Positions 18 to 25,114 of a stretch of DNA of 64,000 nucleotides are shown piece after piece. The position numbers were made by a program, and so were the translations under genes. The notes below the pieces were generated by a model, which was not told the DNA's origin, ran no database searches, and saw nothing but the letters and a program-made list of their open reading frames with translations. Where the stretch lies: NCBI GenBank assembly GCA_964636385.1, contig CAZWSC010000078.1, forward strand, positions 42,874 through 106,873. Direction: 5' to 3'. Each line of letters begins with the position of its first letter. The first letter of the stretch is position 1. The stretch comes from an uncultured bacterium (GTDB lineage Bacteria > Eisenbacteria > RBG-16-71-46 > CAIMUX01).

Positions 18-1016
18 GTGACAGCACCCGGCTTCTCACCGGGCCAGTACAGGCAGATTCTGCTCGAAGGGCCATTGCGCAGTGTCAACTGGATCATCCG
101 CAATCACGGACGGGCCGAGGACGCCTGGAGGGTCCCGCCCGATGCAGGCCCCCTTTTCCCGGCATCAATCGCCGATCAGGAGATGCAGGAAAGCGCGTTG
201 AGCCCGGTGCGGTCAAGGCACTTCATCAACTCCGACTTCCGCCCGGTGGGCTATGTACACACTGTCGCGTTCTGGAGCCACTTCACGGCAGCAGGCCGGA
301 CGGCCGCGTTCAGATGGATACTCAGGGTCGAGCCCTGGTGGATGGTCCCGGTGCTGGTGATCCTGCTTCTCGGGGCCGTGATCCTCAGGCGTCCGGCAGC
401 CGTGCGTTCGGGAGCAGGGATCGGGAGGTATCCGCTTCTGGCCGCGGTCTTCACAACCGGTCTCTCCACGATGACGCTTCAGATAGCGCTCCTGTTCGCC
501 TTCCAGGCTGTATACGGCTTTGTGTACGAGATGATCGGGGCGATCGTCGGAGGCTTCATGGCGGGTCTGGCGGCTGGCACCCTGGCGACCCTGCGCTTCG
601 TGCGCCTGAAGTCGGACACGCGGATTCTAATGCTTGTTCAACTCGCGATCGCACTCTGCGCCGGGTTGATTGCACTGGCCCTGCCCCTGTCGGGCGGCAT
701 AGCGTCACCGTCTCTTCAGCTGGCGCTGTTCCTGGGTGTCACCTTCATTGCGGGCTTCCTGAACGGTGTTGACTTCCCGCTTGCCGCGGCCTGTTTCCAT
801 GCGCTCGATGGAAAGGCCGAGCGTGCGACAGGGACCGTGTACGGGGTCGAGCTCTTTGGCGCGTGCTGCGGCGCCCTGCTCGCCGGGGTCATGGTCGCGC
901 CGGTTCTGGGGGTTGGCGCGTGCTGCTGGCTTGCCGCCATTGGGAATGGTGCGGCGTTTCTGGTACTGTTGATCTCCGGAGGCGCGCATGGAGCACCCAA
1001 AGGACAGGCTGCATGA
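18..1016 (+). CDS. Polytopic membrane protein, probably 5'-truncated by the window edge (the frame is open upstream of the GTG at 18)
   Basis: No in-frame stop between position 1 and 18. Residues ~110-330 are hydrophobic and look like multiple TM helices. No recognisable catalytic motif. Confidence 0.4.
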   Translation: MTAPGFSPGQYRQILLEGPLRSVNWIIRNHGRAEDAWRVPPDAGPLFPASIADQEMQESALSPVRSRHFINSDFRPVGYVHTVAFWSHFTAAGRTAAFRWILRVEPWWMVPVLVILLLGAVILRRPAAVRSGAGIGRYPLLAAVFTTGLSTMTLQIALLFAFQAVYGFVYEMIGAIVGGFMAGLAAGTLATLRFVRLKSDTRILMLVQLAIALCAGLIALALPLSGGIASPSLQLALFLGVTFIAGFLNGVDFPLAAACFHALDGKAERATGTVYGVELFGACCGALLAGVMVAPVLGVGACCWLAAIGNGAAFLVLLISGGAHGAPKGQAA

Positions 1017-13879: not shown

Positions 13880-15925
13880 ATGGTCGCAATGCCGCCGATT
13901 CGGCATCCCTGGAGGAATCCCGCTGTCGCGCAGATCGTGATCTGCCTCATCGCCGCATTTTCCTCGCCCCCCGGCGCCCATGCGGGGCCCCCGGTCCCGG
14001 ATCCGGTGCACAGGGCTGAGATTCTGGAGACGACACACCATGTGCCCCGCCCTCGTGACGCAGGGACTGCGACTCCTCATGATCGGATGACATCCGCTGT
14101 TCATGACCCCCGGGACGACTATGACGTCCGCTACATCGAACTCGACCTGGACCTCACGGACCTGGATCGTGAGTACATGACGGGAAGGGTCATGATCGAC
14201 CTGGACTGCCTTGCAGACGGCCTCGACCTGATAGCCCTGGACTTCGACGGAGAGTTCGAGATCGGCGCCATCCTGGTTGACGGGGTGGAGTCGGCTTGCT
14301 CATGGGATCAGGGCAGCTTGCAGATCGAAATGCCCGAACCGGCGGTACTCGGCGGGTCGCATCGCGTGGAAGTGGAGTACGAAGGACTTCCCGCGGGCCC
14401 GCGGTTCAGGTACGACACGTATGCGGATGAGGCCTGGATATGGACCCTCTCCCAGCCGGAGTGGGCCCGCACATGGTGGCCGTGCAAGGACAGGCCCGAC
14501 GATAAGGCCGACAGCGCCCGCGTCCGCATAACCGTGCCCGACTGGATGACCGCTACATCGGTGGGAACCCTGGAGTCGCTGGACTACCCGGTCCCGGGCG
14601 CCGCTGCGTTCACATGGTTCGAGCGCTATCCGATCGCGCCTTACCTGATCTCCGTGACGGCCGGCAACTTCGTCCTGCTTGATGAGATGTACGAGGATCC
14701 CGCCGGCTGGTCGCTGCCGCTGCACCACTACGTATTCGATGACCTGGTGGACAAGGCCAGGGAGGACTTCAACATCGCGCCCGGGGCCATGCGGATCTTC
14801 TCCGAGGCGTTCGGTCCGTATCCCTTCCTGGGGCAGAAGTATGGGGTTACTCTGTTCGGTTGGCCCGGGGCCATGGAGCACCAGTGCAACACGTCATACG
14901 GTTACAGGCTGGTTGACGGCCGGCACACCTATGACTGGATCTATGTTCACGAACTGGCGCACATGTGGTGGGGCAACGCTGTCACCTGCGCCACCTGGGC
15001 AGACATCTGGCTGAACGAGGGGCTTGCCTCATGGAGCGAGGCATACTGGTGGGAGCAGGTGTACGGACCGGAAGCCTACCGGGAGTATATGACAGGGACC
15101 CAGGTCGTCCGGGACCCCAGCGGTCCTCTGTACAATCACGAGCGATGGTTTGACGTCAACACCATCTATAACAGGGGGGCATGGGTAGTGCACATGCTGC
15201 GGGGCGCCCTCGGGGACAGTCTTTTCTTCCGTGCCCTTGCGGATTACAGGGAGTTGTACGAGGGATCCTCGGTCACGACAGCACAGTTCCAGGCATCCCT
15301 TGAGGCTTCGACCGGGATGAGTCTGGACTGGTTTTTCGAGTCGTGGGTTCATGGAGTGGACAGGCCGCACTACGAGTTCTCCCACACCTACGAACCGGAT
15401 GCCGGTCCCGGGTCGGCCGGGCGCCTGAGAATGCGGCTGGACCAGGTTCAGACATCAGCCGGGCACTTCACCATGCCTGTCACCATTCGCGTGATCGGCC
15501 CCGGGGGCGGCGACTTCAGGTTCTGGAACGACCCAGACAGCAGGGACTTCGTGATCGACCTTCCCGGCCCGCCGGAGGCTGTGATCCTCGACCCTGATGA
15601 CTGGATCCTGAAGAACGTGAGGACCTCCGGGTATGGTCTGCCGGTCTTGCGCACCCAGCCGAGTCCGTTCGTGCGGTCGGCGCGTATCACACGTTCAGGC
15701 AGGGGAACCGGGCCGACTGAGTGGAGGATTGTCAGTGTGCATGGAAGAGAGGTCGCGCACGGAGTGACACCAGCCCCTCCGCCGGGAAGCCTTCGAAGCT
15801 GGGTCTGGGATGGAAAAGGTCCGGACGGCAGGCGCCTGCCGTCCGGAGTGTACTTCATCCACACCAGCCTGCCCGTGGATCCTGCAGCTCCGCCCGTCTC
15901 AGGCCGGCTGGTCCTGCTGAACTGA
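13880..15925 (+). CDS. Secreted M1-family zinc aminopeptidase with a T9SS (Por) C-terminal sorting domain
   Basis: Signal peptide. GAMEH (GAMEN-like) and HELAHMWWG...E (HEXXH-X18-E). C-terminus ...SWVWDGKGPDGRRLPSGVYFIHTSL...GRLVLLN resembles a T9SS CTD. Confidence 0.85.
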   Translation: MVAMPPIRHPWRNPAVAQIVICLIAAFSSPPGAHAGPPVPDPVHRAEILETTHHVPRPRDAGTATPHDRMTSAVHDPRDDYDVRYIELDLDLTDLDREYMTGRVMIDLDCLADGLDLIALDFDGEFEIGAILVDGVESACSWDQGSLQIEMPEPAVLGGSHRVEVEYEGLPAGPRFRYDTYADEAWIWTLSQPEWARTWWPCKDRPDDKADSARVRITVPDWMTATSVGTLESLDYPVPGAAAFTWFERYPIAPYLISVTAGNFVLLDEMYEDPAGWSLPLHHYVFDDLVDKAREDFNIAPGAMRIFSEAFGPYPFLGQKYGVTLFGWPGAMEHQCNTSYGYRLVDGRHTYDWIYVHELAHMWWGNAVTCATWADIWLNEGLASWSEAYWWEQVYGPEAYREYMTGTQVVRDPSGPLYNHERWFDVNTIYNRGAWVVHMLRGALGDSLFFRALADYRELYEGSSVTTAQFQASLEASTGMSLDWFFESWVHGVDRPHYEFSHTYEPDAGPGSAGRLRMRLDQVQTSAGHFTMPVTIRVIGPGGGDFRFWNDPDSRDFVIDLPGPPEAVILDPDDWILKNVRTSGYGLPVLRTQPSPFVRSARITRSGRGTGPTEWRIVSVHGREVAHGVTPAPPPGSLRSWVWDGKGPDGRRLPSGVYFIHTSLPVDPAAPPVSGRLVLLN

Positions 15926-15985
15926 TCCCGCCTGGTCCACCGCGTCCCCGATTCTCCTGCGGAACGCGGACCGCCGGGGCGCAGA

Positions 15986-16561
15986 TCAGGAGATCTCGCT
16001 CAGAAGGCTGTTCAGCTTCTCACCGGATGAGTCCAGCAGTTCCTTGTGCAGGCTGCGGCCATGGGAGTCCATGGTGACCACGGCGGGGTAGTCCTCCACC
16101 TCGAACTCCCAGATCGCCTCGGGGCTGCCGAACTTCTCGAGGAGATGCACGCCGCGAACGGCGGTGACCCGCTCTGCCAGGACCTGTGCGGCGCCTCCGA
16201 CGGTGTGCAGGTAGACGCACCCGAACTCCTGGCAGGCCTGGAGCGTCTTCGCGCCCATACCTCCCTTGCCGATCACGCCGCGGATCCCGTGGTCACGGAT
16301 CACATCGTACTCGTAGGGTTCTTCACGGCCCGAAGTGGTGGGTCCCGCCGCCTTCACGACCCAGACCCCCTTCTCCTTAACCACCACCGGCCCGCAGTGG
16401 TAGATCATGCCGTTGCTCATGTCGACGGGCGAGGGATTGCCGTCGAAGAGGTACTTGTGTACTGCATCGCGGCCTGTGAAGATGAGCCCAGTGATCTCGA
16501 CGAGGTCACCCACCCTCAGACTGCGGATTGCTTCTTCGGTAAAAGGCGCTTCCAGACGCAT
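15986..16561 (-). CDS. Fe-S hydro-lyase beta subunit (class I fumarate hydratase / L(+)-tartrate dehydratase beta)
   Basis: Matches the C-terminal domain of class I fumarase (GKGGMGAKTLQACQEFGCVYL). ATG at 16561 has AGGAG 8 nt upstream. The track's start at 16612 is TTG. Confidence 0.8.
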   Translation of the reverse strand: MRLEAPFTEEAIRSLRVGDLVEITGLIFTGRDAVHKYLFDGNPSPVDMSNGMIYHCGPVVVKEKGVWVVKAAGPTTSGREEPYEYDVIRDHGIRGVIGKGGMGAKTLQACQEFGCVYLHTVGGAAQVLAERVTAVRGVHLLEKFGSPEAIWEFEVEDYPAVVTMDSHGRSLHKELLDSSGEKLNSLLSEIS

Positions 16562-16621
16562 GATCGCAACTCCTGTCCTGCCGGCCGCATGTGCCGCCGG
16601 CATGTTCGTCAACAGCCCGGG

Positions 16622-17812
16622 CTAGTACAGCCAGCTCTTGATGGTTCCGTCGGCCCGGAGCTCCGCGCCCTGGCGCCTGAAGGCCCAGCACATGTATGAC
16701 ACACTGACGAAGAACGAGGCCGGCAGCCTGTTGAGCGCGCCGATCTTGCAGCCCAGCAGAGTGGAAGCGCCGCCGAACCCCATCGGACCGATGCCCAGGG
16801 CATTCGCCTTGGTGAAGACCCTCTTCTCCAGCGCCGCCAGCTCCGGATTCGGGTTTGTGTCATCCAGCGACCTGAGCAGCTGCTCCTTGGATTCCGCATA
16901 TCCCGTGGCCCTGTCGCCTCCGACGCAGACCCCGAGGATCCCGGGTCCGCATCCCTTGCCCTGCGCCTGATAGACGGCGTCAAGTATGCACTTCTCCACA
17001 CCGGCCAGGTCACGGCCGGCGCCGAGTCGCCCGTAGGGTAAGGAGTACTGGATGCCGCAGTTCTCGCAACCGCCGCCCTTTAGGATCAGGCGGATCTCCA
17101 GGCCCGAACGGTTCCACTGCCGGATGTGGTAGACAGGAGAGCCGGGACCGAGATTGTTGCCCGAGTTCTTTCCTGTGAGGGAATCCACCGAGTTCTGCCT
17201 CAGGTAGCCCACCTCTGTTGCCTTTATCACGGCCTGCTCGGCGGAGCGGCGAAGCATCCCTTCGTCGAATCCGCGGGGCGCCTTGATGTAGAAGAGGATC
17301 GACCCCGTGTCCTGGCACAGGGGAAGGCTGTTCGCCCTGGCCAGGTCGATGTTTTCGTCGATGATCTTCATCGCCCAGATGGCGTTTGAGTCGGGAGCTT
17401 CGGAGTCCCGCGCCCTGTTCATCGCGCGCGCAACGTCATCGGGCAGATCTGCGGACGTCTTGCGCACGATCTCCAGAAACGCCGCGCGAAGGGCGGCGGG
17501 TGTCATACCCACAGCAGCGGCCTTTGAGGCTTTCTTCGCGGGTTTGACAGCCATGGCCCGTGCAGCTGCCTTCCTCGCGGGCGCCTTGGCGGAGGCTTTA
17601 ACAGCTGGCCTGGTCTTCTTCACGGGTGTCTTCGCCGCGGGCCTGGCCTTGCCGACAGGCGCCTTCTTCGCGGCTGACGGTCTGGCTGAAGCCTTGACTG
17701 CGGCCTTCCTGCCCCCGCTTCGCGCAGCGGAGGGCCTGGCGGTCTTTTTGCGTGTGGTGGTCTTCTTCGGGGCGGCGCGTCGCCCTGCACTCGACCCAGA
17801 GGCTTTTTGCAT
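16622..17812 (-). CDS. Fe-S hydro-lyase alpha subunit (class I fumarase/tartrate dehydratase alpha) with a ~100-aa N-terminal Lys/Ala/Pro-rich histone H1-like extension
   Basis: The catalytic part (CQDTGSILFYIKA...GGGCENCG...) is a typical alpha subunit. Upstream in-frame KAAVKASARPSAAKKAPVGKARPAAKTPVKKTRPAVKASAKAPARKAAARA. GGGGAG sits 9 nt before the ATG at 17812 and a TATAAC -10-like box lies upstream, supporting translation of the tail. A shorter start at 17506 lacks an RBS. Confidence 0.7.
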   Translation of the reverse strand: MQKASGSSAGRRAAPKKTTTRKKTARPSAARSGGRKAAVKASARPSAAKKAPVGKARPAAKTPVKKTRPAVKASAKAPARKAAARAMAVKPAKKASKAAAVGMTPAALRAAFLEIVRKTSADLPDDVARAMNRARDSEAPDSNAIWAMKIIDENIDLARANSLPLCQDTGSILFYIKAPRGFDEGMLRRSAEQAVIKATEVGYLRQNSVDSLTGKNSGNNLGPGSPVYHIRQWNRSGLEIRLILKGGGCENCGIQYSLPYGRLGAGRDLAGVEKCILDAVYQAQGKGCGPGILGVCVGGDRATGYAESKEQLLRSLDDTNPNPELAALEKRVFTKANALGIGPMGFGGASTLLGCKIGALNRLPASFFVSVSYMCWAFRRQGAELRADGTIKSWLY

Positions 17813-17970
17813 GCCTGTCATCTCCCCTCGCGTTATACCGACACTTCGTGGACTGCTGGATCATTGCGGCTGCCGGGCGTAGTGTCAAGCCAGCCTTGTC
17901 CGGAGCACCGTGAACCGGCAGGGGTTCGGACAGGCTTGTTATCCCGGAAAGATTGCGGGGCTCTCTGGAG

Positions 17971-18618
17971 TCAGGCTACGCGGATGCTTCCGTCTTCCTG
18001 CGGTGGATCCATGGCTGCGGCTTCACGGACCGGGGATCTCACCTCGAGAAGTGTCGGTCCGCCCGCAGACATGGGGAGGTCCAGCCACTGCAGCGTGAGC
18101 ACGTCTCCAGGGTTGAAGAGCCGGCTGACCGTCCCCGCCGTGGCTTCATCCAGCCTGAAGAAGATCTCTGCAGATGTCTCCGGGAGGCTGGAGGCCGTCA
18201 GCGGCCAGGAGTGGCCGGGATCATCCCCGTCGGTCACACTCAGATGCAGACCCCACTGATGCGGCTCGTCCTGGATCAGGCGGCATGGACCCTGGCTGAT
18301 CATCACGGGGCGGAGTCCGGCCCGGTGTCCCATAACTGACCATGCTCTGGCCAGATACGCGGACATGACCATGATCCCCATGACGCAGTTGAAGCCCCCG
18401 ATGATTACCATCAGGGTCCGGAAGCTGGGAGTGTCGAGAGGCAGAAACGGCACTGTCTCAAGCCAGCCCGGAAATGACGCCGTGATCGCGAAGTACCCCA
18501 TTGCCCCGAAGGCGACGGCCAGCACAAGCCCTGTTGTGGCGATAACCAGGGGGAGGAGCATTCCGGGCGGCTGCAGGGTGATCGAGTCTGTCCTGTGGAT
18601 GTAGACGGGCGTCCTCAT
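17971..18618 (-). CDS. Hypothetical membrane protein
   Basis: Three or four hydrophobic helices (LLPLVIATTGLVLAVAFGAMGYFAI; LMVIIGGFNCVMGIMVM). No known motif. Confidence 0.4.
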   Translation of the reverse strand: MRTPVYIHRTDSITLQPPGMLLPLVIATTGLVLAVAFGAMGYFAITASFPGWLETVPFLPLDTPSFRTLMVIIGGFNCVMGIMVMSAYLARAWSVMGHRAGLRPVMISQGPCRLIQDEPHQWGLHLSVTDGDDPGHSWPLTASSLPETSAEIFFRLDEATAGTVSRLFNPGDVLTLQWLDLPMSAGGPTLLEVRSPVREAAAMDPPQEDGSIRVA

Positions 18619-18819
18619 GGTACTGGGATCGGCAGGGATCCCGGGGGGCTTGATGCAAAACACCGGCTGGTGTGAAGGCGGCTGCCCGGTTCACAAGGAA
18701 GCTCTGGTGGCCGCGCATGAAGACAGAGGACCGCGTGTCAGGATGTCCGGGTGTCCGTGGCCGGGGAAGTGCGCGGATTGTCGAGAACGGACGCCGGGAG
18801 CTGCTGTCGATCACCGGGC

Positions 18820-19896
18820 CTATCTGTAGATCGTCTTCAGCCTGCTCCATGATGTTTCGACCTGGCTGAACTCGCAGGGCGACGGTATGCAGGAGACTCC
18901 CTCTCCCATGAAGACTCCCCCGGCGTCCAGGCACTCGCCCCACTTCAGCAGTCGGCAATCCAGACCGAGGCAGCAGGCTCCTTCTCCGGGGACGCACGGA
19001 TTCGGCCAGCAGACAGTGTTGTCCCCATGGTAGACGTAACCGAATGCCTCGCAAGTGGCCCTGGTCTGGATGATGCATCGTCCCTGGGGTGTACAGCAGG
19101 CACCGGTGATGGTGTGCCCCCCGCAGGGATTGTAACCGTCGCGGCCGAAGCCGAGTTTGCCAAGACCTTCGACACGATCGACGACCACCGGGATGGAGTC
19201 ATCACCAAAAACCGGCCAGCCCTGGCTTGGATGCTCTGCTATCTCCACGGTATTGCCGGAGTACACATAGCTGGCGAACCACAAAACCTCGTTGATCTGC
19301 GAAGTGAGAGGATCGTCGACCCATACGATGCCTACGCCGGTGCCGTCTCGCGGCCAGCCGTTGCTCTCGAGGACGAACGGAGCATTCGTTCCCCATGCAA
19401 AGGGTTCGACAAGTGGGCTGGAGTACCTCATTCCGAAGGTCACTGCCATAACCGTGGGCCAGGAGAATCCGTCGAACACGGCAAGCACGTAGTAGACGAT
19501 TTCGTCCACCTCCCCTGGCGTACCATCGATGCGGGTTATGGCGTGTTCACAGTCGTAGAGCTCGGCATAACTGCTGTAATCGATTCCGCTGGTGTAGATG
19601 AGAGACGGGTTGGCGTGAAGGATGAGCATTCCGCCTTCGTTGACCCCGCCGGAGGCATGAGGACTCCACGCGCAAAGAGCGATGAGCAGTGAAATGGATA
19701 GATCCCGAATCCGTTTGAACCGACAGCAGTCGGATGGCCTTCGTTCGGATGGGGTGGTTGTAACGGTTTCCGGCGGGCAGGGCTGCGGTTGGGGGGTACC
19801 TGCCCGGTGTCGGGCAGAGAGGCACGGGCCCGCCGGGTGTCGATACGGTATGACAGAACTGCCGCCCAAGGATGTGGAGTGGTGTTGACTGCGCAA
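18820..19896 (-). CDS. Cys-rich secreted or membrane-anchored protein with two tandem ~40-aa six-Cys repeats. Start codon uncertain
   Basis: Hydrophobic signal-like segment RIRDLSISLLIALCAWSPHASGG at residues ~65-88, with no in-frame ATG/GTG/TTG just before it. C-terminal repeats NPCGGHTITGACCTPQGRC...CWPNPC and NPCVPGEGACCLGLDC...CIPSPC. Confidence 0.5.
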   Translation of the reverse strand: MRSQHHSTSLGGSSVIPYRHPAGPCLSARHRAGTPQPQPCPPETVTTTPSERRPSDCCRFKRIRDLSISLLIALCAWSPHASGGVNEGGMLILHANPSLIYTSGIDYSSYAELYDCEHAITRIDGTPGEVDEIVYYVLAVFDGFSWPTVMAVTFGMRYSSPLVEPFAWGTNAPFVLESNGWPRDGTGVGIVWVDDPLTSQINEVLWFASYVYSGNTVEIAEHPSQGWPVFGDDSIPVVVDRVEGLGKLGFGRDGYNPCGGHTITGACCTPQGRCIIQTRATCEAFGYVYHGDNTVCWPNPCVPGEGACCLGLDCRLLKWGECLDAGGVFMGEGVSCIPSPCEFSQVETSWSRLKTIYR

Positions 19897-21093: not shown

Positions 21094-21603
21094 CTAGCGG
21101 ACGGCAAGTTCGACGAGCTTCGCGATCTTCTCGTACCGGCGGAGGCTGATGTTCGGGTTGTACTTCAGAAGGAGTTCCCGAAGATCGGCACAGAATGTCG
21201 AGTGGCTTGCCTGGCGAACCACCCTCTTGCTCCGCTTGCGGGCAACCTTGCGGGGCCTGGACAACCTTGCGACCGGCGCGGCCGCAGCGACCGGCTTGCG
21301 AACCGCCTTGCGCGCGACCTTCCTCACGGCCTTCTTCGCCTTGCGGGCCACCTTGCGTACGGCCTTCTTCCGGGCCGGACCGGCAACCACGATCCTCGCA
21401 CCCTTGCGCCGGCCACGGCTGATACCGGCCTTCCTCGCCTTGTTGTTTACTGTGGGGAGCGAGACGCCGTGCTTGTGGGCGATCTCGCGATAGCTGAGCT
21501 TGCCTGCCCTGATGTCGGCTATGATCGCCTTTTCCCGCTTCAGCAGGTCGATCTTTCCGGTACTTCTGGTCCGAGTGGTCCTTCTCGCCTTTGATGCCTT
21601 CAT
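21094..21603 (-). CDS. Small DNA-binding protein: N-terminal helix-turn-helix followed by histone H1-like KKAVRKVARKA repeats
   Basis: LSYREIAHKHGVSLPTVNNKARKAG looks like an HTH. Then ARKKAVRKVARKAKKAVRKVARKAVRKPVAAAAP. GGAAGGAG sits 8 nt before the ATG at 21603. Confidence 0.55.
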   Translation of the reverse strand: MKASKARRTTRTRSTGKIDLLKREKAIIADIRAGKLSYREIAHKHGVSLPTVNNKARKAGISRGRRKGARIVVAGPARKKAVRKVARKAKKAVRKVARKAVRKPVAAAAPVARLSRPRKVARKRSKRVVRQASHSTFCADLRELLLKYNPNISLRRYEKIAKLVELAVR

Positions 21604-22102
21604 GGCTGTCACTCCTTCCGGTTCCTTGCACGACCGCGCAACCAAGTCAACTTCTGCATCCTCCAGGGGACTCGGTGTCTCTCCGTCAACCAGGTGTCAG
21701 CCGGGCTGACAGGCGCGCCGTGCCGGTGCCTTCCGAGGCATGGAGGATGCACACGACATTGGATGCAGTATGGAAAGACTCCGCATGTGTGTCAACCTGC
21801 TTATAACAGATTTCGAGCAATAACCGGCATGGATCGTGTGCATTGGCGTTGGAAATTGATAATCGAACGTAGTGGTGATGGTGAGCCGGATGTCCCGCAT
21901 ATCGGCCTTGTACTTCACACATGATTCCTGCCCATTCGACCGGTACAGGTGTGTGTTGCCTTCGCAGTGTTCGGCAGGTGCGTGGAAGGGTCTGAACCTG
22001 CGTTCCGCTCTGCGCATGGAAATGCGATGACACGGAGGTGCCGTCTGAGTACTCTTCCTGGAATGCCCGGTTGGTCCCGGTGCGGACAGGAGGTGTAGCC
22101 TT

Positions 22103-23899
22103 ATGATCTCCGGGGGGAGTCACCCGCAGCAAGAGGAGAGGGCCGTTCAACTGGAGGTTGATTTCACTGCCGAAGTGAAGAGTCCGGAAGCCATGGCTGC
22201 TGCCGCGCGCGCCGGTGCGGCCAGAAGGAAGGAGCAGAAACGCGCGCCTTCCGGCAAAGCCACCCCGGATCCAACATCGACCAGAGGCGACTCCGCCACT
22301 GTCCGCGGCAGGGGAAGGCGTCGTGCCCGGGATTCAAAACCGTTGTCGGCCAAGGAGATGGCTTCCAGGCAGCGGGATATCTCGGTATCGGAGTTTTTTT
22401 CCAAAAACCGCCATCTCCTGGGCTTTGACAACCCCTCCAAGGCGCTCCTCACAACAGTGAAGGAAGCTGTGGACAACTCCCTGGACGCCTGCGAGGAAGC
22501 AGGTATTCTTCCGGACCTGCAGGTGGAGATCAGGCGCGTGGCAGAGGATCGTTACGCTGTTGCTGTACAGGACAACGGCCCGGGAATAGTGCGCAGCCAG
22601 GTGCCCAGGATATTCGGGAGGTTGCTGTACGGTTCGAAGTTCCACAGCCTGAAACAGAGCCGGGGGCAGCAGGGGATCGGCATCTCCGCCGCAGGCATGT
22701 ACGGTCTGATGACAACCGGCAAGCCGATACGCGTGATCTCGAGAACCGCCGCGAAAAGCCCTGCACACCTTTTCGAGCTGGTCATCGACACGGTCAGGAA
22801 CGAGCCGGAGCTGCTGGTGGATACGGAGGTGGAGTGGGATCAGGATCACGGCACGCGCGTCGAGATCACCCTCCAGGGGACGTACAAGAGGGGCCGCCAT
22901 TCGGTGGATGGCTATCTCAAGCAGATCGCCATTGCCAATCCGCACGCCCGGATCATCTACCATCCGCCGGAGCCGGAGGAGGGGCCGGTTCTGCTGGACA
23001 GGGTTTCCTCAGAGCTGCCGCCGGAACCGATCGAGATCAAACCGCATCCCCACGGTGTTGAGCTCGGACTGCTCCTGAAGATGCTGAAGGAGACCCGGGA
23101 GAGGCATCTCGCGCAGTTCCTCAACAGGGAGTTTTCCAGAGTGAGCCCCAGGGCGGCGGGGGAGATGCTCGAAGCGTCCGCCCTGTCCGCCAGGACGCGG
23201 CCGTCAAGGCTGTCAAACGGGGATGCGGAGCGTCTGCACGGGGCGATGACGCAGGCGAAGATCATGGCCCCGCCGGCGGACTGCGTCTCCCCGATCGGAG
23301 AGGAGCTTCTCTTCAGGGCCCTGAAGCAGGATGTGGAGACGGACTTCTACACATCCGTGACTCGTCCTCCCTCCGTGTACAGGGGCAATCCATTCCAGAT
23401 TGAGGTCGGCATGGCCTACGGTGGGCGCCTGCCGCAGGATGAAACCATAACGCTGTACCGATATGCAAACCGGGTTCCACTGCAGTATCAGCAGTCGGCC
23501 TGTGCGATTACAAAGGCAGTTCTGAGCATCGACTGGAAGAAGTACCACCTGTCCCAGGCCAGGGGAGCCCTCCCCGCAGGGCCGCTCATCCTGGTTGTGC
23601 ACATCGCATCCGTATGGGTGCCGTTCACATCCGAATCGAAGGAGGCGGTGGCGCACTATCCCGAGATCATACGCGAGATCAGGCTCGCTCTGCAGGAGGC
23701 CGGAAGGCGCGTCGGGGCGCACATAGGCAGGGTCAGGCGGGCGAAGGAAGAGGGCAAGAAGCGGTCGTACATACAGAAGTACATTCCCCACATCGGTTAT
23801 GCGCTGCAGGAGATCCTGGGGCTCAAGGATCCCGAGAGGGACAGCACGATCGAGATCCTGACCGACGTGTTGGAGAAGAGCCGGACTCAGCCGGGGTAA
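22103..23899 (+). CDS. top6B: DNA topoisomerase VI subunit B (GHKL/Bergerat ATPase) with a ~85-aa basic N-terminal extension
   Basis: SVSEFFSKNRHLLGFDNPSKALLTTVKEAVDNSLDA, KPHPHGVE and YRGNPFQIEVGMAYGG...LYRYANRVPLQY align with archaeal Top6B. AGGAGG sits 9 nt before the ATG at 22103. The internal ATG at 22358 has no spacer after its SD. Confidence 0.85.
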   Translation: MISGGSHPQQEERAVQLEVDFTAEVKSPEAMAAAARAGAARRKEQKRAPSGKATPDPTSTRGDSATVRGRGRRRARDSKPLSAKEMASRQRDISVSEFFSKNRHLLGFDNPSKALLTTVKEAVDNSLDACEEAGILPDLQVEIRRVAEDRYAVAVQDNGPGIVRSQVPRIFGRLLYGSKFHSLKQSRGQQGIGISAAGMYGLMTTGKPIRVISRTAAKSPAHLFELVIDTVRNEPELLVDTEVEWDQDHGTRVEITLQGTYKRGRHSVDGYLKQIAIANPHARIIYHPPEPEEGPVLLDRVSSELPPEPIEIKPHPHGVELGLLLKMLKETRERHLAQFLNREFSRVSPRAAGEMLEASALSARTRPSRLSNGDAERLHGAMTQAKIMAPPADCVSPIGEELLFRALKQDVETDFYTSVTRPPSVYRGNPFQIEVGMAYGGRLPQDETITLYRYANRVPLQYQQSACAITKAVLSIDWKKYHLSQARGALPAGPLILVVHIASVWVPFTSESKEAVAHYPEIIREIRLALQEAGRRVGAHIGRVRRAKEEGKKRSYIQKYIPHIGYALQEILGLKDPERDSTIEILTDVLEKSRTQPG

Positions 23900-23968: not shown

Positions 23969-25114
23969 ATGGCAGCTGGACGCAGGAATCGCAAGGACAT
24001 CAGGCAGAAGAACGAGGAGAAGGACAGGCAGACTCTGTCCCTAATCTCCGGGACCGCGGGGGAGATACACACCCGCGTGCTCAAGAGGCGCAAGCCGGAC
24101 CTGCGGTTCCCGGTTCGTGCGTTGTCGAATGTGAGCTACTCGGAGAAGAACGGATACCTGGAGATAGGGAAGGCGAAGAAGGTACGGACACTCACCGTGA
24201 ACACCGTGAAAGCGTTTGCCCAGACGCTGAGAATGATGTCCCTCTCGAAGAGTCTGATCGAGACCAACGACTTCGCGACCAAGAGGGACGCGTACTACCA
24301 GTCGAAGAACTGGGGCGAGGCGATGTTCCAGGATCAGCCCGAGTCGGATACCGTCATGGACGACATCGAGGCCCTCTTCTCTGTTCACAACGTCAGCCGC
24401 GAGCAGCTTCGCTTCATACCGGACGAGCACGGCGGAGCCGTTGCGGGCGAGCTGGTGGTCCTGGATCCCGATCTGGAATCCGGACGCGTCGAACGCATCG
24501 ACTGCACACGATTCGGCTCGGGCGCCTATTCCATCCCGGGTTCCGTGGAACAACTATCCTTCGAGACGGATGCCGGGTTCATCCTGGCCATTGAGACGGG
24601 CGGTATGTTCCAGAGGCTGCAGAATCACAAGTTCTGGGCGAAAGCCAACTGCATCCTGGTGTCGATGGGGGGCGTTCCCACCCGCGCCACCAGGCGGTTC
24701 ATCCGCAAGCTTTCGGACGAGAGGAAGATCCCGGTCTACGCGTTCGTTGACTGCGATCCCTACGGGATCTCCAACATCTACCGCACGCTCAAGGTGGGCA
24801 GCGGCAATGCCGCCCACATCAACCGCTTCTTCTGTGTTCCACAGGCCAGGTTCCTCGGGGTCACGCCGCGCGACATCGTGGAGTACAAGCTCCCGACCCA
24901 TCCCCTGAAGGAGGTGGACGTGAAGCGTGCGAAGGATGCGATAAGAAACGATCCGTTCTTCAGGCACCACAAGCCGTGGGTGAAGGCGATGAGCGAACTC
25001 CTGAAGATGGGTGTTCGCGCCGAACAGCAGGCCCTTGCGAAGTGGGGACTGAACTACGTGATCGAGGAGTACCTGCCGGCGAAGCTGGCAAATCCCAGGC
25101 TGTTCCTGCCCTAG
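23969..25114 (+). CDS. top6A: DNA topoisomerase VI subunit A (Spo11-like, Toprim)
   Basis: Toprim acidic motif YAFVDCDPYGISNIY. Spo11/Top6A-like winged-helix region. AGGAG RBS. Immediately downstream of top6B. Confidence 0.85.
   Translation: MAAGRRNRKDIRQKNEEKDRQTLSLISGTAGEIHTRVLKRRKPDLRFPVRALSNVSYSEKNGYLEIGKAKKVRTLTVNTVKAFAQTLRMMSLSKSLIETNDFATKRDAYYQSKNWGEAMFQDQPESDTVMDDIEALFSVHNVSREQLRFIPDEHGGAVAGELVVLDPDLESGRVERIDCTRFGSGAYSIPGSVEQLSFETDAGFILAIETGGMFQRLQNHKFWAKANCILVSMGGVPTRATRRFIRKLSDERKIPVYAFVDCDPYGISNIYRTLKVGSGNAAHINRFFCVPQARFLGVTPRDIVEYKLPTHPLKEVDVKRAKDAIRNDPFFRHHKPWVKAMSELLKMGVRAEQQALAKWGLNYVIEEYLPAKLANPRLFLP

Follow-up and report, generated by a model that had tools for sequence, protein, structure and literature searches.

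A predicted polybasic, histone H1-like N-terminal tail on the alpha subunit of a fumarase-type Fe-S hydro-lyase in Eisenbacteria-like and Bacteriovorax-like bacteria

Several bacterial proteins carry a Lys/Ala/Pro-rich, cationic terminal appendage that is predicted to be disordered on a folded domain, including MLDS, the polyhydroxyalkanoate (PHA) granule proteins PhaF and PhaM, AlgP, mycobacterial Ku, and HupB. Rhodococcus MLDS uses its PAKKA tail to tie lipid droplets to genomic DNA, in a binding that is not sequence-specific and is abolished by Lys-to-Glu substitution (PMC5504291), and the PAKKA tail of mycobacterial Ku binds DNA non-specifically and modulates DNA binding (PMC3553676). The KPAA domains of AlgP and PhaF position granules, and peptides of these domains bind DNA in vitro; AlgP itself sits on polyphosphate (polyP) granules and its KPAA domain is needed for their even spacing (PMC9239181). 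Fumarases, for their part, moonlight in the DNA-damage response, namely class II enzymes in yeast, human, and B. subtilis and the class I enzymes FumA and FumB in E. coli, all of which are without a DNA-binding appendage. After damage, B. subtilis fumarase co-localizes with DNA, and its action is mediated by malate (PMC5711358); E. coli FumA/FumB act via fumarate and alpha-ketoglutarate effects on AlkB (10.1101/2020.08.04.232652). Here, we analyze a stretch of 64,000 nucleotides (nt) from an uncultured bacterium of the Eisenbacteria lineage (referred to in full as the window), in which a gene for the alpha subunit of a class I Fe-S hydro-lyase most like fumarate hydratase is extended at its 5' end by about 100 codons for a polybasic tail. 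We find that this tail is very probably translated and that tails of the same composition fill two whole clades of the family, and we consider it probably a tether, maintained by selection, to DNA or another polyanion.

A hydro-lyase alpha subunit with a polybasic appendage

The gene, its partner, and the parts of the encoded protein are located as follows.

16622..17821, minus strand: long-form open reading frame (ORF) of 399 codons (399 aa), with tail and core in one frame
16622..17506, minus strand: class I Fe-S hydro-lyase (fumarate/tartrate family) alpha-subunit core, stop codon included, matching PF05681, TIGR00722, and 7xky_A
17810..17812, minus strand: probable start codon, M4 of the 399-aa ORF, with a 9-nt spacer and MTGMQ conserved in three relatives
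17507..17812, minus strand: polybasic K/A/P/R-rich disordered N-terminal tail of 102 residues with a net charge of +31, delimited by composition, frame conservation, and AlphaFold2
17705..17821, minus strand: better-conserved N-terminal segment of the tail (MTGMQxAxGSSxGRRxA..KK...RSGGRK), from comparison of the window with locus L084
15986..16561, minus strand: beta subunit (Fumerase_C) of 191 aa, matching PF05683 and TIGR00723, with AGGAG 8 nt before its ATG

The earlier note on this DNA had described a basic tail of about 100 residues in frame with a normal hydro-lyase alpha domain, and the ORF, the PF05681 match, and the composition all bear this out. The Pfam Fumerase model PF05681 matches aa 116–385 with an E value of 1e-68 (231.9 bits, cut-off 25) and is covered nearly in full (profile positions 5–268 of 270), so the residues before about aa 106 are an extra appendage. 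The core also passes the NCBIfam model TIGR00722 (ttdA_fumA_fumB; 191.1 against a cut-off of 100.65). The beta-subunit gene lies directly downstream after a 60-nt gap, matches PF05683 (E value 6.5e-53) and TIGR00723 (170.9, cut-off 145.15), and its ATG has a Shine-Dalgarno (SD) duplex of −6.9 kcal/mol. The only solved relative found by sequence is 7xky_A, the alpha subunit of the two-subunit fumarate hydratase of M. jannaschii (MjFH), which aligns from query residue 114 onward (E value 1e-34). AlphaFold2 models the core at a confidence score (pLDDT) of about 90, and Foldseek matches this model to 7xky_A (E value 1e-23, target-normalized TM-score 0.89) as well as to 5l2r_A, the Leishmania major fumarate hydratase (LmFH). 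In the HMMER alignment, the Cys residues of LCQDTG, GKGCGPG, and YMCWAF correspond to chain positions 73, 195, and 282 of 7xky_A; these are native MjFH Cys60, Cys182, and Cys269, the ligands of the [4Fe-4S] cluster (numbering and assignment from 10.1101/2022.09.03.506457). These three aligned Cys residues and the CQDTG motif with its catalytic Asp are present in the window protein and invariant in 34 homologs. The protein is therefore a class I Fe-S hydro-lyase alpha subunit by profile, fold, cluster Cys residues, and adjacent partner. The closest known systems are MjFH (7XKY) and LmFH (5L2R); the alpha fold, cluster Cys residues, and CQDTG Asp are those of MjFH, and the beta gene is adjacent here, but the window protein shares 31% identity with MjFH alpha and has about 100 polybasic, disordered residues where MjFH has about five native residues before the aligned region.

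The enzyme is a two-subunit class I [4Fe-4S] hydro-lyase, of which this gene encodes the alpha subunit. It is most like fumarate hydratase, a substrate assignment drawn from sequence likeness, and homologs carry the name fumarate hydratase in JGI and NCBI records. Two observations speak against taking this assignment as certain. First, none of the NCBIfam equivalog models searched with the alpha core reaches its cut-off, with fumarate hydratase NF004885 at 193.6 against 276 and L-tartrate dehydratase NF006084 at 151.1 against 365. Second, the position of MjFH His257 (LmFH His334) is occupied in the window protein by the invariant Leu of NRLPAS (residues 361–366 counted from M4), and the H257N mutation lowers the catalytic efficiency of MjFH 28–44-fold (10.1101/2022.09.03.506457). 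A different His (229) is invariant in the window subfamily in place of the His257 position. The substrate specificity of this subfamily may, judging from these residues, differ from that of canonical fumarase.

Counted from M4 the tail has 102 residues (102–105 depending on the start), namely A32 K20 R11 S9 P9 G6 T6 V6 M2 Q1; it contains neither Asp nor Glu, and its isoelectric point (pI) is about 12. AlphaFold2 gives residues 1–100 pLDDT values of 39–52 and no secondary structure. There is one exact PAKKA, one TPVK, two AKKA, and three P-x-[KR]-[KR] motifs (PVKK, PARK, PAKK), with no KPAA. To place this composition against its background, we scanned all six frames of the 64 kb for stop-free 40-residue windows with at least 25% K+R, at least 10% K, at most 5% D+E, and at least 30% A+P. 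Three segments were returned, namely the tail, part of the ORF at 21094..21645 (minus strand), and a 45-residue stretch at 485..619 (minus strand) that barely exceeds the thresholds. Only the first two are long lysine-rich tracts, and the composition of the tail is therefore not that of its background.

The tail is K/A/P-rich, acid-free, disordered (pLDDT below 52), and contains PAKKA and S/TPxK motifs; it belongs to the compositional class of PAKKA and S-TPKK-type lysine-rich tails, which is not a homology family. The proposal that it resembles an Hc1- or AlgP-type domain thus stands for composition and falls for homology. No Pfam family, Hc1, Hc2, and AlgP-type models included, is matched by the window tail even at an E value of 10, and no tandem repeat was found in 17450..17900 at a Tandem Repeats Finder score of 30. 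AlgP and PhaF, in contrast, have a long tandem KPAA array. The tails of MLDS, PhaF, PhaM, AlgP, Ku, and HupB are C-terminal and often regularly repeated, whereas the window tail is N-terminal, non-repetitive, and richer in Arg; their cargoes are granule or DNA-repair proteins, whereas here it is a soluble enzyme of central metabolism, and there is no profile-level homology. Chlamydial Hc1 and Hc2 (PF07432, PF07382) are likewise Lys/Ala-rich but are free-standing nucleoid-condensing proteins, not enzyme appendages. Three tails from the second clade described below (P0071, P0106, P0119) match the HC2 model at 25.1, 21.4, and 17.3 bits (E values 2e-5 to 5e-3), below the gathering cut-off of 40, whereas the window tail does not match it. 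A search with the tail alone of a collection of 5.8 billion proteins for other families with the same module gave no significant match; the approach is thwarted by the filtering of low-complexity sequence and by the wrongly called starts among close relatives.

Translation and start of the tail

Three further features bear on whether and from where the tail is translated.

17860..17888, minus strand: promoter-like site TTGACA-17 nt-AATGAT, a single sigma-70-like match whose hexamers are invariant in three relatives
17822..17829, minus strand: SD sequence GAGGGGAG, identical in the window and in loci L084 and L085
17598..17864, minus strand: off-frame 88-aa ORF over the tail DNA, an artifact that is called in locus L001, with a substitution pattern that fits the fumarase frame and not its own

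Public gene calls give shorter proteins. The identical protein P0001 is listed at 310 aa, and the closest relatives at 294, 294, and 317 aa. These calls are artifacts because either the contig ends, which is 15 nt upstream of the apparent start at MTPAAL in P0002, or an ORF of 88–112 aa has been called over the tail DNA in another frame (P0001, P0003, P0004). The earlier note would have counted a uniform start of orthologs at MTPAAL as a refutation, and with the short calls traced to these two causes such a refutation is only apparent. Several frames are open in the tail DNA because it is T-poor, and both the off-frame ORF at 17598..17864 (minus strand) and an antisense ORF at 17307..17882 (plus strand) were rejected as shadow ORFs of DNA that is T-poor on the sense strand. 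Off-frame calls over tail DNA also occur at 531..845 of L084 and 2694..3032 of L085. Such mis-calling is a systematic annotation artifact of T-poor, GC-rich, low-complexity coding sequence.

Evidence on the reading frame comes from the close relatives L084 (93% core identity) and L085 (84%). In both, the fumarase frame runs on for 105–111 codons to the same MTGMQ start, and the tail indels in the codon alignment are one and six whole codons. Between the window and L084, the substitutions at codon positions 1, 2, and 3 number 17, 13, and 34 in the tail (chi-square approximately 11.7, p approximately 0.003) and 14, 11, and 76 in the core. GC content by codon position did not discriminate between frames within the tail, where GC at third positions (GC3), at 0.70 for the fumarase frame, reaches 0.72 in one of the others. 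Conservation is uneven along the tail: the first 39 residues of the window and L084 differ at about three positions, whereas the remainder is 27–45% different, and beyond the first 39 residues amino-acid change in the tail is approximately 3.6 times faster than in the core.

Signals upstream of the tail are conserved as well. Within 2.2 kb (15900..18100) there is one sigma-70-like site, TTGACA-17-AATGAT, where shuffled sequences give 0.1, and GCTTGACA and CGCAATGATCC, with both hexamers, are invariant across the window, L084, and L085, whereas sequence farther upstream diverges. This conserved pair is preferred to the TATAAC box that had been put forward as the -10 element, which is not conserved in L085. 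The pairing of GAGGGGAG with the anti-SD for the ATG at 17812 is −8.3 kcal/mol, among the best 7% of ATGs in the window (window-wide mean −3.8). Since this SD has a spacer of 9 nt to 17812 and abuts the ATG at 17819..17821, the likely start is 17812; the GGGGAG sequence with its 9-nt spacer, which had been assigned to the longest form, instead serves the second ATG (M4). Nor is the junction ATG at 17506 wholly devoid of a ribosome-binding site, as had been claimed, because a weak SD match of −3.2 kcal/mol is present there; the corresponding values are +0.2 in L084 and −6.6 in L085, and the match is not conserved.

The presence of tails elsewhere was assessed in the closest 120 clusters at 90% identity together with the window protein, plus 150 representatives, with a tail defined in the former set as an N-terminal extension of at least 40 residues with at least 20% K+R. 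In 37 of 42 tailed homologs there is no Met from −20 to +5 of the core start, and the tail must therefore be translated for those proteins to exist. Taken with the frame, codon-position, and indel data, the conserved SD and promoter, and the clade-wide occurrence of tails, this makes translation of the tail very probable, as the earlier note had supposed.

The window sublineage is among those that keep a junction Met (GMTPAAL in the window and L084, AMTPAAL in L085), which speaks against exclusive translation of the tailed form there. It could mean that two enzyme pools are made, one tailed from the ATG at 17812 and one tail-less from the ATG at 17506. We regard this as rather unlikely. The Met is retained in all three relatives, a Met lies near the junction in only five of the 42 tailed proteins (the window protein being one of these), and the SD at the L085 junction is of moderate strength; but the SD at 17506 is average in the window and absent in L084, a promoter-like site inside the tail was not found, and the Met in three close relatives may be due to chance. 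It is very improbable that translation starts only at 17506 and that the open frame upstream is an accident of T-poor, GC-rich DNA: although the nearest relatives are publicly called at 294–317 aa and several open frames run through the tail DNA, between which GC3 does not choose, the short calls are accounted for, the indels are whole codons, third-position substitutions are in excess, the SD and promoter upstream are conserved, most tailed homologs have no junction Met, and tails are also present in AT-rich genomes, where open frames do not come free.

Distribution and evolution of tailed alpha subunits

Tails were identified in 43 of the 121 closest protein clusters, the window protein included. 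The 42 tails that were measured are 52–180 residues long and have a median net charge of +0.29 per residue and 0–4 Asp and Glu residues. In neighbor-joining trees (288 columns, 100 bootstrap replicates, taxon labels taken from the titles of metagenome-assembled genomes), they fill two whole clades, in which all properly called members are tailed. Clade A includes the window protein and has R/K/A/P-rich tails; its genome-resolved members L003 and L005 are labeled Candidatus Eisenbacteria. The clade A neighborhood is like that of the window, comprising topoisomerase VI A and B, a helix-turn-helix (HTH) K/R-rich protein, trpS, a 215-aa protein, fumA, fumB, an M1 peptidase, an Impact_N-family protein (PF01205), and transketolase. 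Clade B, which includes Bacteriovorax stolpii, is found in AT-rich genomes with a different gene neighborhood, and its tails are 31–54% Lys. At the clade B locus L086 (42% GC), a K-rich frame of 80 codons is open from the first ATG after a stop and is the sole such tract in 21 kb.

Clades B and A have bootstrap values of 100 and 71, whereas the two were grouped in none of the 100 replicates. In addition, tail-less sequences are 65–70% identical to the window protein and clade B sequences 58–62%. Because the clades never group and tail-less sequences are closer to the window protein than clade B is, gain or loss of the tail has occurred repeatedly. As far as this neighbor-joining bootstrap analysis can test it, we rejected a common origin of all tails; several losses from an ancient tailed ancestor are formally possible. 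The genomes L006, L009, and L012 have the same neighborhood with a tail-less fumA, so the tail is more than a phylum-wide habit. A search with the core of 1.84 billion representatives at 50% identity yielded diverged polybasic N-terminal tails in P0123, P0128, P0130, and P0207 (50–59% identity), with about 65 K/R/A/P-rich residues in P0128 (52% identity), KKKV repeats in P0123, and short tails in P0130 and P0207, which suggests that further lineages may have the trait. Despite free drift in sequence and length, the two separate clades show the same tail composition (20–54% K+R, almost no Asp or Glu, A/P-rich), held by selection, and its recurrence in separate lineages speaks for a selected trait rather than an accident.

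Other N-terminal additions were seen in the survey. Some tailed homologs, such as P0006, have AKPV/AKPAP repeats, and P0142 has a non-basic N-terminal fusion of 260 residues. In Silvanigrellaceae-type loci (L043, L045, L049, L053, L058, L077), fumA has a conserved Pro/Lys-rich extension of 22–32 residues (MKVPKMATNPKAPLKTPPPVPATHTKL), which sits where the tail does, just before the core start, but is far shorter and of another kind. We also considered an origin of the tail by fusion with an adjacent H1-like gene, which was rejected in that 80 related loci (506 kb) contain no K-rich ORF directly upstream of a tail-less fumA. The only recurrent K/R-rich neighbor in these loci is the HTH protein, 1.5–3.5 kb upstream, and homology between its tract and the tail cannot be established as both are of low complexity.

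In the window, this neighbor is a small protein encoded at 21094..21645 (minus strand), with a weak HTH match (Sigma70_r4_2, E value 4e-4) followed by a K/R/A-rich repeat (RKKAVRKVARKAKK..., RKKAVRKVARKAKKAVRKVARKAVRK). It has syntenic homologs upstream of trpS/fumA in L087, L005, L006, and L012, including genomes with a tail-less fumA, and it is a candidate lineage-specific nucleoid-associated protein. Genes for topoisomerase VI B (22103..23899, plus strand; Topo-VIb_trans, E value 1e-59) and A (23969..25114, plus strand; TOP6A Toprim, E value 3e-59) follow. The pair, here on a bacterial, Eisenbacteria-like contig, is also present in the syntenic locus L087, and its B subunit has a basic, Arg-rich N-terminal extension. 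Upstream of fumA, the ORF at 17971..18663 (minus strand) encodes a membrane-like protein of 215–230 aa without a Pfam match that is also the conserved neighbor in L085 and L087. Between trpS and the fumA neighborhood, the ORF at 18820..19896 (minus strand) encodes 358 aa without a Pfam match and with a Cys-rich C-terminal half.

Possible roles of the tail

By analogy with the characterized tails, we consider the best explanation, at about even odds, to be an enzyme whose disordered polycationic tail serves as a sequence-independent polyanion tether and localizes it to the nucleoid. The alpha subunit would bear at its N terminus a tail of approximately 100 residues, intrinsically disordered and polycationic, and this tail would act like the C-terminal domain of histone H1 and the bacterial PAKKA/KPAA tails, that is, as an electrostatic tether indifferent to sequence. 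Its ligand would be a cellular polyanion, most probably chromosomal DNA, and the folded enzyme (alpha2-beta2 if the stoichiometry is that of MjFH) would be parked on the nucleoid rather than diffusing freely. A plausible if speculative purpose would be to control fumarate and malate locally beside the DNA, so that the part that fumarase plays in the DNA-damage response would be hard-wired; simple anchoring or partitioning is an alternative. The link to the moonlighting fumarases is conceptual, as their recruitment is conditional or absent, whereas a constitutive, covalent tail would target the enzyme described here. In favor of the nucleoid tether, the one other long lysine-rich tract of this type in the window belongs to an HTH protein. 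The stronger proposal, that an Fe-S fumarase has been hard-wired to the chromosome by an H1-like tail at least two independent times (in Eisenbacteria-like and Bacteriovorax-like bacteria) because local fumarate/malate chemistry on the nucleoid is selected, is one we put forward tentatively and think unlikely to hold in full.

Several points weigh against the nucleoid tether, including, from the results above, the failure to match any H1-like, Hc1, Hc2, or AlgP profile, the lack of a regular repeat, the junction Met, and the uncertain substrate. Many close relatives of the window protein are tail-less. Moreover, sequence does not discriminate among DNA, RNA, polyphosphate, and membrane as the ligand. 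Finally, [4Fe-4S] enzymes of the FumA type are labile to oxidants, and on DNA such an enzyme could release iron beside it, with no obvious benefit in aerobes.

An alternative is that the tail is a polyanion tether whose ligand is not DNA, with polyP granules or RNA/ribosomes in its place, possibly in enzyme-concentrating condensates. The K/P/A-rich tail of AlgP has the same composition and AlgP is on polyP granules in vivo (PMC9239181), and the window tail has no sequence-specific motif beyond a single PAKKA and a single TPVK, and its sequence does not tell polyanions apart; however, most characterized bacterial K/A/P tails bind DNA in vitro, and no polyP kinase or granule gene was noticed beside the locus, in a neighborhood that was partly surveyed. 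A ligand other than DNA is conceivable but doubtful on this evidence. We think it quite improbable that the role is intrinsic to the enzyme and does not involve localization, with the tail acting as an entropic bristle or solubility aid, as an electrostatic partner for the acidic beta subunit, or as a cationic cloud that would draw in the dianionic substrates (fumarate, malate) or, near succinate dehydrogenase, the anionic lipids of the membrane. The charges would allow for it, as the beta subunit is acidic (pI 5.4, net charge −8), the alpha core mildly basic, and the tail +31, and recurrence on the same enzyme in separate lineages hints at an enzyme-specific reason. But lengths of 52–180 residues, with length and sequence free to vary, go far beyond the needs of docking or steering, tail-less orthologs at 65–70% identity share the invariant core residues, and there is no amphipathic or hydrophobic membrane element, F/W/Y/C/I/L/M/H accounting for four of 110 residues.

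Full-text searches of the literature yielded no relevant paper, either on a fumarase whose tail is H1-like or lysine-rich or on the fumarase of Bacteriovorax. Enzyme type and tail type are each known; what is new is that they are combined, that the combination is conserved throughout clades and recurs in separate lineages, and that gene calls systematically lose it. Because gene calls in GC-rich genomes cut the tail or assign it to a spurious off-frame ORF, appendages of this type are under-counted in protein databases. If the nucleoid tether is correct, the enzyme would join the cargoes that K/A/P tails attach to polyanions, which so far are granules, lipid droplets, and repair factors, and would be a natural case of a tricarboxylic acid cycle enzyme placed on bacterial DNA by an H1-like disordered region. 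Under the stronger proposal, it would amount to a bacterial parallel, by covalent attachment, to the way in which eukaryotes recruit fumarase to chromatin in the DNA-damage response. Bacteriovorax stolpii is a cultivated species, and deletion or charge reversal of its tail would then allow the disputed connection of fumarase to DNA damage to be approached genetically.

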